Assembly: GCA_964016885.1 (NCBI GenBank)
Contig: OZ024746.1
Span: 6,448,001-6,512,000 of the forward strand
Direction of reading: 5' to 3'
Source: Eledone cirrhosa
Taxonomy: Eukaryota
Length of the DNA: 64,000 nucleotides
In this document: positions 96 to 64,000 of the stretch, piece by piece
Numbering within the stretch: position 1 is the stretch's first letter
How the letters are laid out: each line of letters begins with the position of its first letter
Translations under genes and position numbers: made by a program
The notes under the pieces: generated by a model
Databases searched by the model: none
What the model was told of the DNA's origin: nothing
Seen by the model: the letters and a program-made list of their open reading frames with translations, nothing else

Positions 96-693
96 ATACA
101 GAATAGCTGGACACTCACAGTAAAGTGACCAGTGAAAAACTCGGTACATCTACATATGTATACGTGTGTGTATTCATATGCATACTAGTATTTCAGTATA
201 CATATGTGGATGTACATTTTTAACTTAATTGTTTAAGCGTCAGTCATACAAAAGTCAGTTACAAACGAAACGAAATTTAATTTCGTTTCGTTATTTGTTT
301 TTATCGTCTCCGTTGAACCGGTACGTACTCACGCTCTATGCAAATTAGTCTGCCCACTACTAATTTTCATAGAAAAAGCATATAACGATATGTGCTTTTA
401 CGATTCTCTAGAAAGGCCGGAAGATAGGTAAATATTGCTGATGAGATGTAACAACATCGAAACTAGTTCAATATTCCTTGTCTGGCTTTCTGGAGAATAG
501 AGGAAAGGTGTTTCCTCAAAAACCAGTATGACTCTAAAAACCGGTTTGTCTGTGTGTTTACATACAGAATAGCTGGACACTCACAGTAAAGTGACCAGTG
601 AAAAACTCGGTACATCTACATATGTATACGTGTGTGTATTCATATGCATACTAGTATTTCAGTATACATATGTGGATGTACATTTTTAACTTA

Positions 694-698
<5 letters not shown>
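96..698 (+). mobile_element. Retrozyme-like element: 466-bp unit plus 137-bp direct terminal redundancy, one type I hammerhead, flanked by (TA)n
   Basis: 96-232 is repeated at 562-698. Hammerhead at 431-475, ATGCAAAT at 338-345, TA runs on both sides. Confidence 0.75.
431..475 (+). ncRNA. Minimal type I hammerhead ribozyme
   Basis: AATATTG-CTGATGA-GATGT(AACA)ACATC-GAAA-CTAG-TT-CAATATT. Perfect 7-bp stem I, 5-bp stem II, palindromic stem III (ACTAGT), GUU cleavage triplet. Stem I extends further (TTCTCTAGAAAG / CTTTCTGGAGAA). Confidence 0.9.
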
Positions 699-4683: not shown

Positions 4684-4712
4684 GACGATAATTGGTACTT
4701 GAAGTAAGAAGC

Positions 4713-5774
4713 ATGGAGGCTGTCACTTCTACGTTAGATTCCGGTTTTATTAAACATCTCTCCAACAGCAGCGACACTATACATGAGGAATTTTACCATA
4801 TGGCACAATATATCACTGGACTAATTGTTTATCCGATCACTTGTGTTTTTGGTATTGCTGGCAATATACTTACATTGGTCGTGCTCTCACACAAAGATTT
4901 AGCTACATCAACTAATGTTTATCTCTCAGCACTTGCTGTCGGAGATCTAATCAAATTGATCAACGATACATTCTATTTTATTGTTCTACTCATAAAAACT
5001 TGGAATCCTGATAAAGGTGATGAATCCCTTTCAAGACTTTATCCATACGCCCATTACTTGTTTAATCTATCTTTATGTATCACAGGATGGCTAACCGTAT
5101 CGGTTGCATTTGAACGTTATATTTGTATATGCCACCCGACAAGAGCGAAAGAGATGTGTACAGTTTTTAGAGCTCGCATTGTGAGCACTTTTGTATTTAT
5201 ATTTATGATAATATTCTCACTTCCGTCAGCCCTTCGATACAAAACTGTTGTACGGTTACGACCTTACTCTAATGACTCATATCATGATGTCGAACTTACA
5301 GAGTTAGGTGGAAATGATGCATTTATGACTCCCTATACCTGGGTACAAAATTGCTTGAGAACGCTTTTACCTTTACTTATATTAGTTTTTTTAAATGCTC
5401 GAATTGTTCATGAGTTGAGAAAATCACGTGTTCCAGGTAAAAAATTATCCTCAAGAAATCGTATCACTTTGATGTTAATCGTTGTAGTGATCGTATTTAT
5501 TATTTGTATTACTCCAGACGCTATAATGTCTACAGTATTTGGATTTGGTTATTACGATGAGACAAATTTAGTTAGGGGAATCAGAGAAATTACTGATACG
5601 TTACTGGCAATCAATTCAGCATGTAATTTTGTACTCTATTGTACAATGAGCAAAATCTTTAGAGAAACCTTCGTTAAAATGTTTATGAGGGAATGTACAT
5701 GGTGTCCATTGTGGTGTTCAAATAAATGGAAACAGGAATCTCAAACAAATCACACTAATTCCACTGTAAAATGA
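4713..5774 (+). CDS. Class A (rhodopsin-like) neuropeptide GPCR, FMRFamide/sex-peptide/myosuppressin receptor-like, 353 aa
   Basis: Seven hydrophobic segments; TM1 GIAGN, TM2 LAVGD, TM3 ERYICICHP, TM6 FIICITP, TM7 NSACNFVLY. The track's TTG start at 4692 is unlikely in a eukaryote; first ATG is 4713. Confidence 0.93.
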   Translation: MEAVTSTLDSGFIKHLSNSSDTIHEEFYHMAQYITGLIVYPITCVFGIAGNILTLVVLSHKDLATSTNVYLSALAVGDLIKLINDTFYFIVLLIKTWNPDKGDESLSRLYPYAHYLFNLSLCITGWLTVSVAFERYICICHPTRAKEMCTVFRARIVSTFVFIFMIIFSLPSALRYKTVVRLRPYSNDSYHDVELTELGGNDAFMTPYTWVQNCLRTLLPLLILVFLNARIVHELRKSRVPGKKLSSRNRITLMLIVVVIVFIICITPDAIMSTVFGFGYYDETNLVRGIREITDTLLAINSACNFVLYCTMSKIFRETFVKMFMRECTWCPLWCSNKWKQESQTNHTNSTVK

Positions 5775-49247: not shown

Positions 49248-52200
49248 AGTGATGAACTGACAGTCGTTAGAACGTCGATAGAACACTTTGTGGTGGTGAA
49301 GTGACAGTCGTTAGAACGAGGGTAGAATACTTTGTGGTGGTAAACTGACAGTCGTTAGAATGTCGATAGAACACTTCGTGGTGGTGAACTGACAGTCGTT
49401 AGAACGTCGATAGAACACTTTGTGGTGGTAAACTGTCAGTCGTTAGAATGTCGATAGAACACTTTGTGGTGGTAAACTGTCAGTCGTTAGAACGTCGATA
49501 GAACACTTTGTGGTGGTGAAGTGACAGTCGTTAGAACGTCGATAGAACACTTTGTGGTGGTAAACTGTCAGTCGTTAGAATGTCGATAGAACACTTTGTG
49601 GTGGTGAACTGACACTAGTTAGAACGTCGATAGAACACTTTGTGGTGGTGAACTGACGGTCGTTAGAACGTCGATAGAACACTTTGTACTTGTGAAGTGA
49701 CAGTCGTTAGAACGTCGATAGAACATTTTGTGGTGGGGAACTGACACTAGTTAGAACGTCGATAGAACACTTTGTGGTGGTGAACTGACACTAGTTAGAA
49801 CGTCGATAGAACACTTTATGGTGGTAAACTGACAGTCGTTAGAACGTCGATAGAATACTCTGTGGTTGTGAACTGACAGTCGTTAGAATGTCGATAGAAC
49901 ACTTTGTGGTGGTGAACTGACAGTCGTTAGAACGTCGATAGAACACTTTGTGGTGGTGAACTGACACTAGTTAGAACGTCGATAGAATACTCTGTGGTTG
50001 TGAACTGACAGTCGTTAGAATGTCGATAGAACACTTTGTGGTGGTGAAGTGACAGTCGTTAGAACGTGGGTAGAATACTTTGTACTGGTGAAGTGACAGT
50101 CGTTAGAACGTGGGTAGAATACTTTTTGGTGGTAAACTGAGTCGTTAGAACGTGGGTAGAATAATTTGTGGCGGTAAACTGACAGTCGTTAGAACGTCGA
50201 TAGAACACTTTGTACTGGTGAAGTGACAGTCGTTAGAACGTCGATAGAACACTTTGTGGTGGTGAACTGACAGTCGTTAGAACGTCGATAGAACACTTTG
50301 TACTGGTGAACTGACAGTCGTTAGAACGTCGATAGAACACTTTGTGGTGGTGAACTGACAGTCGTTAGAACGTCGATAGAACACTTTGTGGTGGTGAACT
50401 GACAGTCGTTAGAACGTCGATAGAACACTTTGTGGTGGTGAACTGACAGTCGTTAGAACGTCGATAGAACACTTTGTACTGGTGAAGTGACAGTCGTTAG
50501 AACGTCGATAGAACACTTTGTACTGGTGAACTGACAGTCGTTAGAACGTCGATAGAACACTTTGTGGTGGTGAACTGACAGTCGTTAGAACGTCGATAGA
50601 ACACTTTGTGGTGGTGAACTGACAGTCGTTAGAACGTCGATAGAACACTTTGTACTGGTGAACTGACAGTCGTTAGAACGTCGATAGAACACTTTGTACT
50701 GGTGAACTGACAGTCGTTAGAACGTCGATAGAACACTTTGTGGTGGTGAACTGACAGTCGTTAGAACGTCGATAGAACACTTTGTACTGGTGAACTGACA
50801 GTCGTTAGAACGTCGATAGAACACTTTGTGGTGGTGAACTGACAGTCGTTAGAACGTCGATAGAACACTTTGTACTGGTGAACTGACAGTCGTTAGAACG
50901 TCGATAGAACACTTTGTGGTGGTGAACTGACAGTCGTTAGAACGTCGATAGAACACTTTGTGGTGGTGAACTGACAGTCGTTAGAACGTCGATAGAACAC
51001 TTTGTGGTGGTGAACTGACAGTCGTTAGAACGTCGATAGAACACTTTGTACTGGTGAAGTGACAGTCGTTAGAACGTCGATAGAACACTTTGTACTGGTG
51101 AACTGACAGTCGTTAGAACGTCGATAGAACACTTTGTGGTGGTGAACTGACAGTCGTTAGAACGTCGATAGAACACTTTGTACTGGTGAACTGACAGTCG
51201 TTAGAACGTCGATAGAACACTTTGTGGTGGTGAACTGACAGTCGTTAGAACGTCGATAGAACACTTTGTACTGGTGAACTGACAGTCGTTAGAACGTCGA
51301 TAGAACACTTTGTACTGGTGAACTGACAGTCGTTAGAACGTCGATAGAACACTTTGTGGTGGTGAACTGACAGTCGTTAGAACGTCGATAGAACACTTTG
51401 TACTGGTGAACTGACAGTCGTTAGAACGTCGATAGAACACTTTGTGGTGGTGAACTGACAGTCGTTAGAACGTCGATAGAACACTTTGTACTGGTGAACT
51501 GACAGTCGTTAGAACGTCGATAGAACACTTTGTGGTGGTGAACTGACAGTCGTTAGAACGTCGATAGAACACTTTGTGGTGGTGAACTGACAGTCGTTAG
51601 AACGTCGATAGAACACTTTGTACTGGTGAACTGACAGTCGTTAGAACGTCGATAGAACACTTTGTGGTGGTGAACTGACAGTCGTTAGAACGTCGATAGA
51701 ACACTTTGTACTGGTGAACTGACAGTCGTTAGAACGTCGATAGAACACTTTGTACTGGTGAACTGACAGTCGTTAGAACGTCGATAGAACACTTTGTGGT
51801 GGTGAAGTGACAGTCGTTAGAACGTCGATAGAACACTTTGTACTGGTGAACTGACAGTCGTTAGAACGTCGATAGAACACTTTGTGGTGGTGAACTGACG
51901 GTCGTTAGAACGTCGATAGAACACTTTGTACTGGTGAACTGACAGTCGTTAGAACGTCGATAGAACACTTTGTACTGGTGAACTGACAGTCGTTAGAACG
52001 TCGATAGAACACTTTGTACTGGTGAAGTGACAGTCGTTAGAACGTCGATAGAACACTTTGTACTGGTGAACTGACAGTCGTTAGAACGTCGATAGAACAC
52101 TTTGTGGTGGTGAACTGACAGTCGTTAGAACGTCGATAGAACACTTTGTACTGGTGAACTGACAGTCGTTAGAACGTCGATAGAACACTTTGTACTGGTG

Positions 52201-54756
52201 AACTGACAGTCGTTAGAACGTCGATAGAACACTTTGTGGTGGTGAACTGACAGTCGTTAGAACGTCGATAGAACACTTTGTACTGGTGAACTGACAGTCG
52301 TTAGAACGTCGATAGAACACTTTGTGGTGGTGAACTGACAGTCGTTAGAACGTCGATAGAACACTTTGTACTGGTGAACTGACAGTCGTTAGAACGTCGA
52401 TAGAACACTTTGTGGTGGTGAACTGACAGTCGTTAGAACGTCGATAGAACACTTTGTACTGGTGAACTGACAGTCGTTAGAACGTCGATAGAACACTTTG
52501 TACTGGTGAACTGACAGTCGTTAGAACGTCGATAGAACACTTAGTACTGGTGAACTGACAGTCGTTAGAACGTCGATAGAACACTTTGTGGTGGTGAACT
52601 GACAGTCGTTAGAACGTCGATAGAACACTTTGTACTGGTGAAGTGACAGTCGTTAGAACGTCGATAGAACACTTTGTGGTGGTGAACTGACAGTCGTTAG
52701 AACGTCGATAGAACACTTTGTACTGGTGAAGTGACAGTCGTTAGAACGTCGATAGAACACTTTGTGGTGGTGAACTGACAGTCGTTAGAACGTCGATAGA
52801 ACACTTTGTACTGGTGAACTGACAGTCGTTAGAACGTCGATAGAACACTTTGTACTGGTGAACTGACAGTCGTTAGAACGTCGATAGAACACTTAGTACT
52901 GGTGAACTGACAGTCGTTAGAACGTCGATAGAACACTTTGTGGTGGTGAACTGACAGTCGTTAGAACGTCGATAGAACACTTTGTACTGGTGAAGTGACA
53001 GTCGTTAGAACGTCGATAGAACACTTTGTGGTGGTGAACTGACAGTCGTTAGAACGTCGATAGAACACTTTGTACTGGTGAAGTGACAGTCGTTAGAACG
53101 TCGATAGAACACTTTGTGGTGGTGAACTGACAGTCGTTAGAACGTCGATAGAACACTTTGTACTGGTGAACTGACAGTCGTTAGAACGTCGATAGAACAC
53201 TTAGTACTGGTGAACTGACAGTCGTTAGAACGTCGATAGAACACTTTGTGGTGGTGAACTGACAGTCGTTAGAACGTCGATAGAACACTTTGTACTGGTG
53301 AAGTGACAGTCGTTAGAACGTCGATAGAACACTTTGTGGTGGTGAACTGACAGTCGTTAGAACATCCATAGAATGCTATGTGGCGGTGAACTGACAGTCG
53401 TTAGAACGTCGATAGAACACTTTGTGGTGGTGAACTGACAGTCGTTAGAACGTCGATAGAACACTTTGTACTGGTGAACTGACAGTCGTTAGAACGTCGA
53501 TAGAACACTTTGTACTGGTGAACTGACAGTCGTTAGAACGTCGATAGAACACTTTGTACTGGTGAACTGACAGTCGTTAGAACGTCGATAGAACACTTAG
53601 TACTGGTGAACTGACAGTCGTTAGAACGTCGATAGAACACTTTGTGGTGGTGAACTGACAGTCGTTAGAACGTCGATAGAACACTTAGTACTGGTGAACT
53701 GACAGTCGTTAGAACGTCGATAGAACACTTTGTGGTGGTGAAGTGACAGTCGTTAGAACGTCGATAGAACACTTTGTGGTGGTGAACTGACAGTCGTTAG
53801 AACGTCGATAGAACACTTTGTACTGGTGAACTGACAGTCGTTAGAACGTCGATAGAACACTTAGTACTGGTGAACTGACAGTCGTTAGAACGTCGATAGA
53901 ACACTTTGTGGTGGTGAACTGACAGTCGTTAGAACGTCGATAGAACACTTTGTACTGGTGAAGTGACAGTCGTTAGAACGTCGATAGAACACTTTGTGGT
54001 GGTGAACTGACAGTCGTTAGAACGTCGATAGAACACTTAGTACTGGTGAACTGACAGTCGTTAGAACGTCGATAGAACACTTTGTGGTGGTGAACTGACA
54101 GTCGTTAGAACGTCGATAGAACACTTTGTACTGGTGAAGTGACAGTCGTTAGAACGTCGATAGAACACTTTGTACTGGTGAACTGACAGTCGTTAGAACG
54201 TCGATAGAACACTTTGTGGTGGTGAACTGACAGTCGTTAGAACGTCGATAGAACACTTTGTACTGGTGAAGTGACAGTCGTTAGAACGTCGATAGAACAC
54301 TTTGTGGTGGTGAACTGACAGTCGTTAGAACGTCGATAGAACACTTTGTACTGGTGAACTGACAGTCGTTAGAACGTCGATAGAACACTTTGTACTGGTG
54401 AACTGACAGTCGTTAGAACGTCGATAGAACACTTAGTACTGGTGAACTGACAGTCGTTAGAACGTCGATAGAACACTTTGTGGTGGTGAACTGACAGTCG
54501 TTAGAACGTCGATAGAACACTTTGTACTGGTGAAGTGACAGTCGTTAGAACGTCGATAGAACACTTTGTGGTGGTGAACTGACAGTCGTTAGAACGTCGA
54601 TAGAACACTTAGTACTGGTGAACTGACAGTCGTTAGAACGTCGATAGAACACTTTGTGGTGGTGAACTGACAGTCGTTAGAACGTCGATAGAACACTTAG
54701 TACTGGTGAACTGACAGTCGTTAGAACGTCGATAGAACACTTTGTACTGGTGAACT
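49248..54756 (+). repeat. 44-bp tandem satellite, about 125 copies
   Basis: Unit GGTGGTGAACTGACAGTCGTTAGAACGTCGATAGAACACTTTGT; period 44 (e.g. 50341 to 50385). Confidence 0.97.
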
Positions 54757-62217: not shown

Positions 62218-62340
62218 CCAATCAGCTTTAGTAATCCAGTGAAACTACACACCGATTGGTCGAAATACAGTTTGCAAAACTTAACATTCTGTAGCCCCTT
62301 TTTACTGTATATAAGGTACAAAATTTACCCATCATTACAG
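62218..62340 (+). promoter_or_regulatory. Candidate Pol II promoter upstream of a hammerhead element
   Basis: CCAAT 62218-62222, ATTGG 62255-62259, TATATAA 62308-62314, Inr-like CAGTT with A62339 lying 31 nt after the TATA start. Confidence 0.45.
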
Positions 62341-62375
62341 TTGAAAATTGCAAACTTGACTGTCACCACAGAATA

Positions 62376-62414
62376 TGAACCTGAAGATTGCGAAAGCATG
62401 AAAGTACTTGTTCA
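62376..62414 (+). ncRNA. Minimal type I hammerhead ribozyme
   Basis: Identical to 58250-58288 although the flanking element sequence has diverged. Confidence 0.88.
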
Positions 62415-62552
62415 ATTAACACTTAACATTTAATATTCTACCATACTATTCCATTATAATATCATTATAATTTTAAAGGATTGTAAATCAGACAAAGTTG
62501 AAATTCCTCTTATTAATATAATCTTCTTTACACAATCATACACACCCGTGTA

Positions 62553-63287: not shown

Positions 63288-64000
63288 AATCTGGCAGGAA
63301 GGTATACGTTGCTGACGATAGCTACTAAGCTTGAAACTAGTACAGCGTTCCTTTGTTAGTGTTGAACAAACGAGCAACGATGGTTGCTGGACACTGCGGC
63401 TTATTACGGGATGTTTGTTTACAAACACACCGAACATTATAATAAATGTTCGGTGAATCCATACGTACATATATATATATATGTGTGCATGTATGTATAT
63501 ATATATACATACTACTGTACGTCTGTATACATATATGTATGTACGTGTACATACTTATATTTAAGTAACAGCCGTACTAAGAGTGGGAAATGAAATTTCG
63601 TTTCATTTTTTCCGTTTATCGTTTTCGGTGCACCCGGCCGATTAACCCACTCGATATGCAAATTGGGCTATTCAGCCGTTAATATGCATAAGGTAAGTAT
63701 ATACGTTCAACAATCTGGCAGGAAGGTGTACGTTGCTGACAATAGCTAATAAGCTTGAAACTAGTACAGCGTTCCTTTGTCAGTGTTGAACAAACGAGCA
63801 ACGATGGTTGCTGGACACTACGGCTTAATACGGGATGTTTGTTTACAAACACACCGAACATTATAATAAATGTTCGGTGAATCCATACGTACATATATAT
63901 ATATGTGTGTGCATGTATGTATATGTATATATACATACTACTGTACGTCTGTATACATATATATACATATATGTATACAGACGTACGTGTACATGCTTAT
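63288..64000 (+). mobile_element. Retrozyme-like tandem element, 424-bp unit, at least 1.7 copies, runs off the window end
   Basis: AATCTGGCAGGAAGG at 63288 and 63712; hammerheads at 63306-63348 and 63730-63772; ATGCAAAT at 63656-63663; starts in (TA)n. Confidence 0.78.
63306..63348 (+). ncRNA. Minimal type I hammerhead ribozyme
   Basis: ACGTTG-CTGACGA-T-AGCT(ACTA)AGCT-T-GAAA-CTAG-TA-CAGCGT; the second copy has CTGACAA (G8 mutated). Confidence 0.8.

Follow-up and report, generated by a model that had tools for sequence, protein, structure and literature searches.

Two related insertions in the window

The window analysed here is a stretch of 64,000 nucleotides from Eledone cirrhosa (contig OZ024746.1, positions 6,448,001 to 6,512,000), in a host genome of 3.0 Gb that is rich in microsatellites. 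It contains two insertions of short tandem units:

96..698, forward strand: unit 1 insertion (lineage A), 1.3 monomers of a 466-nt period, 5'-truncated, target (TA)n
63288..64000, forward strand: unit 2 insertion (lineage B), 1.8 monomers of a 422-424-nt period

The sequence at 96-232 of unit 1 is repeated at 562-698, unit 2 runs about 60 nt beyond the window end, up to its tail end, and no open reading frame of 150 aa or more lies within either. The initial annotation of this DNA, which proposed that each unit carries an internal snRNA-like promoter, gave the places and order of the shared motifs correctly (TTTCGTTTC at 281 and 63596, TTTATCGT at 300 and 63615, the octamer ATGCAAAT at 338 and 63656), as well as the distances of 100 and 80 nt from the octamer to the hammerhead core, which starts at 438 and 63736. 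Its description of the units as highly diverged was mistaken. They are colinear, with 287 of 410 aligned columns (70%) identical, and the identity extends throughout; their global alignment scores 327, against 123 +/- 12 for shuffles. Because they are such close colinear relatives, the shared block order alone proves little, and at this identity we rejected the comparison of the two units as proof of selection; eight runs of at least 7 nt are identical between them, the octamer among these. A further motif, GCTGGACACT, occurs at 106, 572, 63386 and 63810.

A hammerhead pattern common to both units has 40,627 matches in the genome and 19 in the control. Copies are dispersed at high number, and tandem arrays of about 30 units have a period of 466 nt in lineage A and 422-430 nt in lineage B. 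Judged by sequence, both units are non-LTR retrozymes with a predicted type I hammerhead, protein-less and very abundant.

Three other features of the window were recorded. Directly after unit 1, at 740-905, is an element with a long near-perfect inverted repeat and (TA)n flanks, relatives of which follow a hammerhead copy at locus L212 and precede a U6atac-like copy at L300. A single 360-aa open frame at 4692-5771 (forward strand) matches rhodopsin-family GPCRs (7tm_1, E 8e-29), and a 44-bp minisatellite occupies 49249-54756 (125 copies, 94% matches).

Hammerhead ribozymes

The predicted ribozymes of the two units are as follows:

405..495, forward strand: type I hammerhead of unit 1 with extended stem I (core 438-468, fold z -5.2)
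63306..63348, forward strand: unit 2, first hammerhead, with its core CTGACGA intact and GUA as cut site
63730..63772, forward strand: second hammerhead of unit 2, core CTGACAA (G8A), core start 63736

The unit 1 hammerhead has a palindromic helix III, ACTAGT, and its predicted cut falls after 468 (GUU). The first hammerhead of unit 2 is located upstream of that unit's only promoter block (described below), and the second, in which G8 is replaced by A, is likely to be inactive. Fold z-scores are -5.2 and -3.4 for the hammerheads of the two units, neither of which was matched when the window was scanned at Rfam gathering thresholds. Lineages A and B combine six of six stem I pairs with a palindromic helix III, and across 19 copies the mean number of stem I pairs is 4.9 within a lineage's own sequence versus 2.9 in cross-lineage pairing; stem I is weak, with 3-4 of 6 pairs, in lineages G, H and I. 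The type I fold of the two units, with these helices, is the dimer-type architecture known from animal hammerheads (PMC4209133).

Most other hammerhead repeats of this genome lack a forward octamer, which by eye is present in 5 of about 63 contexts, and two octamer-less hammerhead families resemble the 3' ends of longer elements. The window itself holds a third hammerhead-like family at 62255-62530 (forward strand, core 62381), with helix III AGTACT and an end in (TA)n; further copies are found at L170 and L254, and a ATGCAAAC-like word lies about 35 nt before the core. In a family with helix III ATATAT, two copies (L170, L232) have a reversed octamer about 144 nt upstream. A 310-nt tandem family with helix III ACGCGT (L175, L211, L245-L247) is without the octamer; it has a U5-like core whose score of 5.7 is inside the host range, and TTACTTCCCTT, a host distal motif, about 256 nt before its predicted start. 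The latter may be there by chance because it overlaps the loop of ribozyme stem I.

3' tails and insertion structure

The tail features of the two units are:

233..304, forward strand: unit 1 tail of the preceding monomer, hairpin at 264-292 followed by the T-rich end TTTTTAT
609..681, forward strand: TA/CA-rich long hairpin of unit 1, with a second preferred 3' end near 698
63566..63619, forward strand: unit 2 3' tail, TTTCGTTTC hairpin and preferred end CCGTTTAT

Many insertions stop at the TTTTTAT that follows the unit 1 tail hairpin, the 3' arm of which holds TTTCGTTTC. Independent contigs, which were used for 3' ends and variants only, have loose ends at 303-305 of unit 1 followed by (AT)n, and for unit 2 there are 60 contigs that end at 63619 and then run into (AT)n. 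In each lineage two sites account for most of the 3' ends, 21 of 25 in A and 50 of 65 in B, and (AT)n comes next; the 5' ends show no such clustering and are scattered. The inserted tandems are 5'-truncated, and an inverted partner often accompanies them. Among 27 loci with ends on both strands, four duplicates and one two-family junction were set aside, and the inverted pairs have one arm at each end site in 21 of the 22 independent loci. Both the clustering of ends and the inverted pairs match the one-ended 'tail' described for Penelope-like insertions (PMC8557442). A 600-to-233 junction in two contigs was set aside as evidence for circles, as tandem DNA fits it equally well.

TTTCGTTTC and TTTATCGT thus belong to the 3' tail of the element, where insertions end, and TTTAT is the end itself. 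As parts of a promoter we rejected TTTCGTTTC, TTTATCGT, the proximal CCGG and GCTGGACACT, each of which is exact in none of nine copies of lineages C-F. The octamer, about 35 nt past the tail end, stands at the start of the unit. Runs of T5/T6 occur between the ribozyme and the next promoter. In lineage A a T5 run falls at the distal 3' end, and the proximal 3' end of lineage B is without a T4 run.

As a possible autonomous partner we considered one Penelope-like family with a 713-aa frame, 10 loci of which have neither sequence or end homology to the monomers nor a forward octamer. Its fragments adjoin copies of lineage B (L027, L075, L076), and one of its 10 full-length loci contains a B copy. 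The family was not retained, being very abundant (66,796 candidates) and sharing the (TA)n target, with no end homology, and in this comparison no autonomous partner was identified; its Penelope label was assigned by eye, and Pfam gave no hit on the adjoining fragments. The family is young, and 8 of the 10 loci (L323-L332) show a reversed octamer some 70 nt beyond the stop; inspection by eye also suggests that its 5' region contains a hammerhead-like fold with the core CAGAAGA.

A conserved promoter-like block precedes the ribozyme

Upstream of the hammerhead, each unit has an octamer, a PSE-like element and a TATA-like box:

337..348, forward strand: extended octamer TATGCAAATTAG of unit 1, with the octamer ATGCAAAT at 338-345
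354..373, forward strand: PSE-like element of unit 1, CCAC core, best match to the U6-type core
379..385, forward strand: TATA-like box CATATAA of unit 1, 41 nt after the octamer start
409..416, forward strand: predicted transcription start of unit 1, placed from host spacings
63655..63666, forward strand: extended octamer of unit 2, with ATGCAAAT at 63656-63663
63672..63691, forward strand: PSE-like element of unit 2, with the TCAG core of host U1/U2/U5 and ranking first of 83 offsets
63698..63703, forward strand: TATA-like box TATATA of unit 2, 26 nt after TCAG and 42 nt after the octamer start

The predicted start of unit 1 would fall at 409-412 by U1/U2/U5 spacing and at 413-416 by U6 spacing. 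Within the window the octamer is not over-represented (6 sites, 2.8-4.8 expected). Genome-wide it is linked to the hammerhead far above background: the octamer followed by GCTGANGA has 32,729 matches against 56 in the control, and the octamer followed by cores mostly other than GAAACTAGT has 1,977 against 4, the figure of 1,977 to be set beside about 45,500 matches of other hammerhead repeats above control.

Copies collected by the ribozyme alone give the same picture. In lineage A the octamer is exact in all nine copies that span its position, two of 11 being truncated before it; in lineage B it is exact in 24 of 30 spanning copies and has one mismatch in the other six, with 16 of 46 truncated before it. 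A second ribozyme-only search found two exact and two one-mismatch octamers in lineage C (n=4) and an exact one at L223. Lineages D-G and I come from searches that required the octamer (D, E and I from an octamer-anchored search, F from that for the octamer followed by GCTGANGA, G from another), lineages E-I were missed by the strict structural filter and picked by eye, and lineages G-I are single decayed copies. The 17 representatives used below omit five chance-looking loci (L256, L294-L297) and extra copies of lineages already sampled. As the lineages share ancestry, counts over them are not independent draws.

In an alignment of 11 sequences from six lineages (A-F), the invariant positions upstream of the ribozyme helix are the octamer, the CA at +17/18 (C355 and A356 of unit 1) and the TA of the TATA-like box. 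The CA and TA columns were part of no search pattern, and CA at +17 is present in 15 of the 17 representatives versus 5 of 58 control octamers. Among 21 lineage B copies, variation is lowest in the octamer and at +16 to +19 (0.024 each), compared with 0.12-0.14 at +8 to +15 and 0.05-0.06 further out.

The octamer could instead have been kept for a role in the RNA, as a hairpin arm or protein site in a circle, or as a relic, with transcription supplied by read-through from host promoters. This is a live rival because in most representatives the octamer forms the 5' arm of a predicted RNA hairpin (at least six of its eight bases are paired in 8 of 17), and a T:A pair at +8 is swapped for G:C between lineages A and C. 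It would also accommodate the 70% identity that units 1 and 2 show throughout, and the passage of one-mismatch octamers through whole arrays at separate loci (ATGCAAGT at L005 and L008, ATGCATAT at L043-L049 and L124); a review proposes host-promoter read-through for retrozymes generally (PMC7761336). However, the letters of the octamer do not vary where its pairing partner and the mismatch positions do, and the hairpin z-score, -3.4 in unit 2 and -1.9 in unit 1, shows no excess in D2, E, F and G2 (0.3 to -0.2). A hairpin also leaves unexplained why the CA and the TATA-like box are fixed at the spacing of host promoters, and why the host's genes for U6, U6atac and RNase MRP share the extended octamer.

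Comparison with host small-RNA gene promoters

Host U6 genes carry ATGCAAAT at -76 and -77, or ATGCTAAT at -78; the best U6atac locus has ATGGAAATTAG at -77, one mismatch from the octamer, and RNase MRP has ATGCAAATGAG at -77. All have a TATA near -30 and the same extended octamer as the elements. Host U1, U2 and U5 have YCAG at -55 to -58 and U12 has CCAG at -58, with a TATA-like box 23-29 nt later; by eye, an AAAWCAGA-like motif follows U1, U2 and U5. U13 (L166, octamer at -75), being found with an octamer-requiring pattern, is excluded from the count of independent genes. Five of six U6atac loci are without a promoter and look like retrocopies, and at U6 loci L112 and L113 an insertion displaces the octamer. 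A search for POU-domain genes in the genome gave five matches.

The proximal octamer is present in U6, U6atac and RNase MRP and in none of the U1, U2, U5, U12 and U3 promoters examined, which favours a reading of the block as a U6-type (type 3) Pol III promoter. Transcription would then mostly stop at T5/T6 near the 3' ends, in keeping with the T5 run at the distal 3' end of lineage A, and rare read-through would provide the two-ribozyme precursor; in one version the promoter serves both Pol II and Pol III, as in human H1, and H1 promoters do load both polymerases (PMC11340601). The core sequences argue against this. At 16 nt past the start of the octamer, lineages A-F carry a CA core and U6 genes CTAT or CTGG; in lineages B, C, D and F this core takes the U1/U2/U5-type form TCAG/TCAC. 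Nor does the proximal 3' end of lineage B, with its lack of a T4 run, suit termination by Pol III.

Spacing divides the lineages. The initial annotation had suggested comparing the intervals with the PSE of host U1, U2 and U6 genes, and in this comparison the core-to-TATA distance of A-F is U1/U2/U5-like (24-28 nt where a box was found; none was called in 4 of 17 representatives), but the octamer-to-TATA distance is 40-43 nt, against 47 nt in U6 L107, U6atac and MRP, a shortfall of about 4-6 nt (U6 L108 was called at 44). The window units, at 41 and 42 nt, likewise depart from the type 3 Pol III spacing of about 47 nt from the octamer start. Lineages G and I, at 47-49 nt, agree with the Pol III reading.

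Scoring with core matrices speaks for a resemblance to host promoters but did not separate the classes and was abandoned as a means of assigning the polymerase. Sixteen of the 17 representatives score below zero against the Pol II core matrix, for which leave-one-out values of the host genes are 2.7 to 20.9. The expected offset holds first rank in only 7 of 17, and in the summed profile of nine lineages it comes second to a peak at offset 5. For unit 1 the Pol II core gives rank 24 of 83 and the U6-type core rank 1 of 79, a point for Pol III, as is the result of the U6-type matrix over nine lineages versus controls (p 0.0017); that matrix, however, was built from four sequences including U13 and recovers them poorly on leave-one-out (2.2 to -14.2). 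Both core matrices beat controls (p 1.7e-4 and 2.8e-4), with absolute scores mostly below the host range.

Some further features of the host genes were observed. A distal motif, TTAYYTCCCTT, is common to U1, U2, U6, U3, U12 and U13 at about -257 to -288 (L082-L108, L166, L304-L309, L333); at up to two mismatches it was not found in the U5, U6atac and MRP loci checked, and by eye the distal TTACCTCCCTT motif that many host genes have at these positions was not seen in lineages A and B. The core-to-TATA spacing of U3 (L304-L309) is 30 nt, with a T7 run after the gene at L304, and the U13 promoter (L166) is U6-like; from these features U3 and U13 may be Pol III genes in Eledone cirrhosa, which they are not known to be in vertebrates. 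At L299, L300 and L302, U6atac-like copies either have (TA)n ahead of them or are joined to a lineage F fragment in inverted orientation, which suggests that they were retroposed by the retrozyme machinery.

Discussion

We have described a block of octamer, PSE-like CA core and TATA-like box that is kept at fixed spacing in diverged retrozyme lineages and has its counterpart in the host's small-RNA genes. Of the snRNA-like internal promoter first proposed for these units, this block stands, and the tail motifs that had been included with it do not. The block likely acts as a built-in promoter of the retrozyme units. That it is a promoter of some snRNA type seems to us highly probable, and that it is one with Pol II included is the reading we favour, with less assurance. 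By sequence comparison, the elements combine a U6-type proximal octamer with a U1/U2/U5-like YCAG core, at a spacing about 4 bp shorter. The octamer is 8 bp from the PSE core, as in host U6-type genes, and is not the distal element that the parallel with the newt had implied. The vertebrate octamer is a distal element, from which Oct-1 acts through a positioned nucleosome to relieve the auto-inhibition of SNAPc (PMC9652321). An octamer adjoining the PSE would make a compact, portable promoter. An exclusively or partly Pol III promoter of U6 type we regard as unlikely in view of the A-F cores and spacing, and retention of the octamer as an RNA element or relic as more unlikely still.

Taking the snRNA-type promoter as the working interpretation, we propose the following cycle. 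A POU factor and SNAPc would bind the block, and transcription would begin shortly ahead of the ribozyme, some 71-74 nt downstream of the octamer start. The polymerase would then read on into the next monomer, so that the promoter block of that monomer is copied into RNA; since the start that it directs would be downstream of it, the block could be inherited only by such read-through. Pol II is favoured here because T5/T6 runs stand in the read-through path and Pol III would have to pass them. Two hammerheads, probably paired through the palindromic helix III, would release a monomer that is ligated into a circle, as known retrozymes suggest; monomer circles have been shown for other animal retrozymes (PMC7229834). 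A Penelope-type reverse transcriptase would prime at (TA)n targets, at two fixed internal AU-rich sites, and copy round the template, the expected outcome being the structure that we observe in the insertions, tandems truncated at the 5' end that stop at the two sites and in many cases have an inverted partner. Source copies would be only those arrays in which the promoter is followed by two intact ribozymes. Neither copy in the window would be one, since unit 1 holds a single ribozyme and the sole ribozyme that follows the promoter in unit 2 is the G8A form; both would be dead ends. The suggestion that each monomer transcribes itself is therefore too simple, as promoter inheritance would need read-through across two ribozymes, which neither copy offers.

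More speculatively, these elements might represent a class of promoter-capturing retroelements, with a chimeric, nucleosome-independent SNAPc promoter (U6-type proximal octamer, U1-type PSE and spacing) unlike that of any host gene examined, carried in circular RNA and regenerated with each tandem insertion. Sister lineages would use different polymerases, A-F having Pol II spacing, G and I U6 spacing, and the octamer-less 310-nt family a U5-like core. We put this forward tentatively, as an extension that may well not hold in full.

For the abundant transcription of animal retrozymes a review assumes read-through (PMC7761336). With a specific promoter, a start predicted within an 8-nt window and three mutable elements, the question becomes directly testable. 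The analysis also yields a promoter grammar for small-RNA genes of both Pol II and Pol III in Eledone cirrhosa that is useful for guide-RNA expression, and it implies some 30,000 dispersed POU sites, which could affect nearby genes.

Relation to known systems

The units resemble metazoan non-LTR retrozymes (Cervera and de la Pena 2020, PMC7229834; Li, Clavereau and Pollet 2026, bioRxiv 10.64898/2026.07.22.740005) in being non-coding tandem repeats of a few hundred nt with one type I hammerhead each and a short palindromic helix III, dispersed in tens of thousands of copies in genomes where Penelope-like elements co-occur. As far as the available text of those reports goes, the conserved promoter-like block is a feature of the present units only. 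According to a 2020 review, promoters seem to be absent from retrozymes (PMC7761336), and the terms 'promoter', 'octamer' and 'snRNA' do not occur in the searchable text of the 2026 preprint (bioRxiv 10.64898/2026.07.22.740005). In the literature searched, to which most subscription papers, Repbase and Dfam did not belong, we found no description of an snRNA-type promoter in invertebrate retrozymes or of hammerhead repeats in octopus. With Penelope-like elements (PMC8557442, PMC4209133) the units share 5' truncation, partial tandems, an inverted partner, a one-ended tail, microsatellite targets and type I hammerheads, but they have no ORF.

Among the host's own promoters, those of U6, U6atac and RNase MRP share with the elements the extended octamer adjoining the PSE, and those of U1, U2, U5 and U12 the YCAG core and its distance to the TATA-like box; no gene examined joins the proximal octamer with a YCAG core, as the elements do.

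Two hammerhead satellites provide the closest precedents for an internal promoter. That of the schistosome satellite is of the A/B-box type. It has been reported as a Pol III promoter (cited in PMC2220036), and differs in this from the octamer-PSE-TATA arrangement of the units here, the likeness being that of a hammerhead repeat with an internal promoter. Newt satellite 2 is nearer, as a hammerhead tandem repeat with an internal snRNA-type promoter, which in our units is predicted. Its promoter, in the 1994 work of Coats, Zhang and Epstein, is said to contain an octamer and a PSE. It was reported to be of the snRNA Pol II type (cited in PMC2220036). The units of Eledone cirrhosa, known here from their sequence, differ in their invertebrate-type promoter grammar, in an octamer placed 8 bp from the PSE core and in their occurrence as at least six lineages, and they raise the possibility that the newt result of 1994 is a general one.
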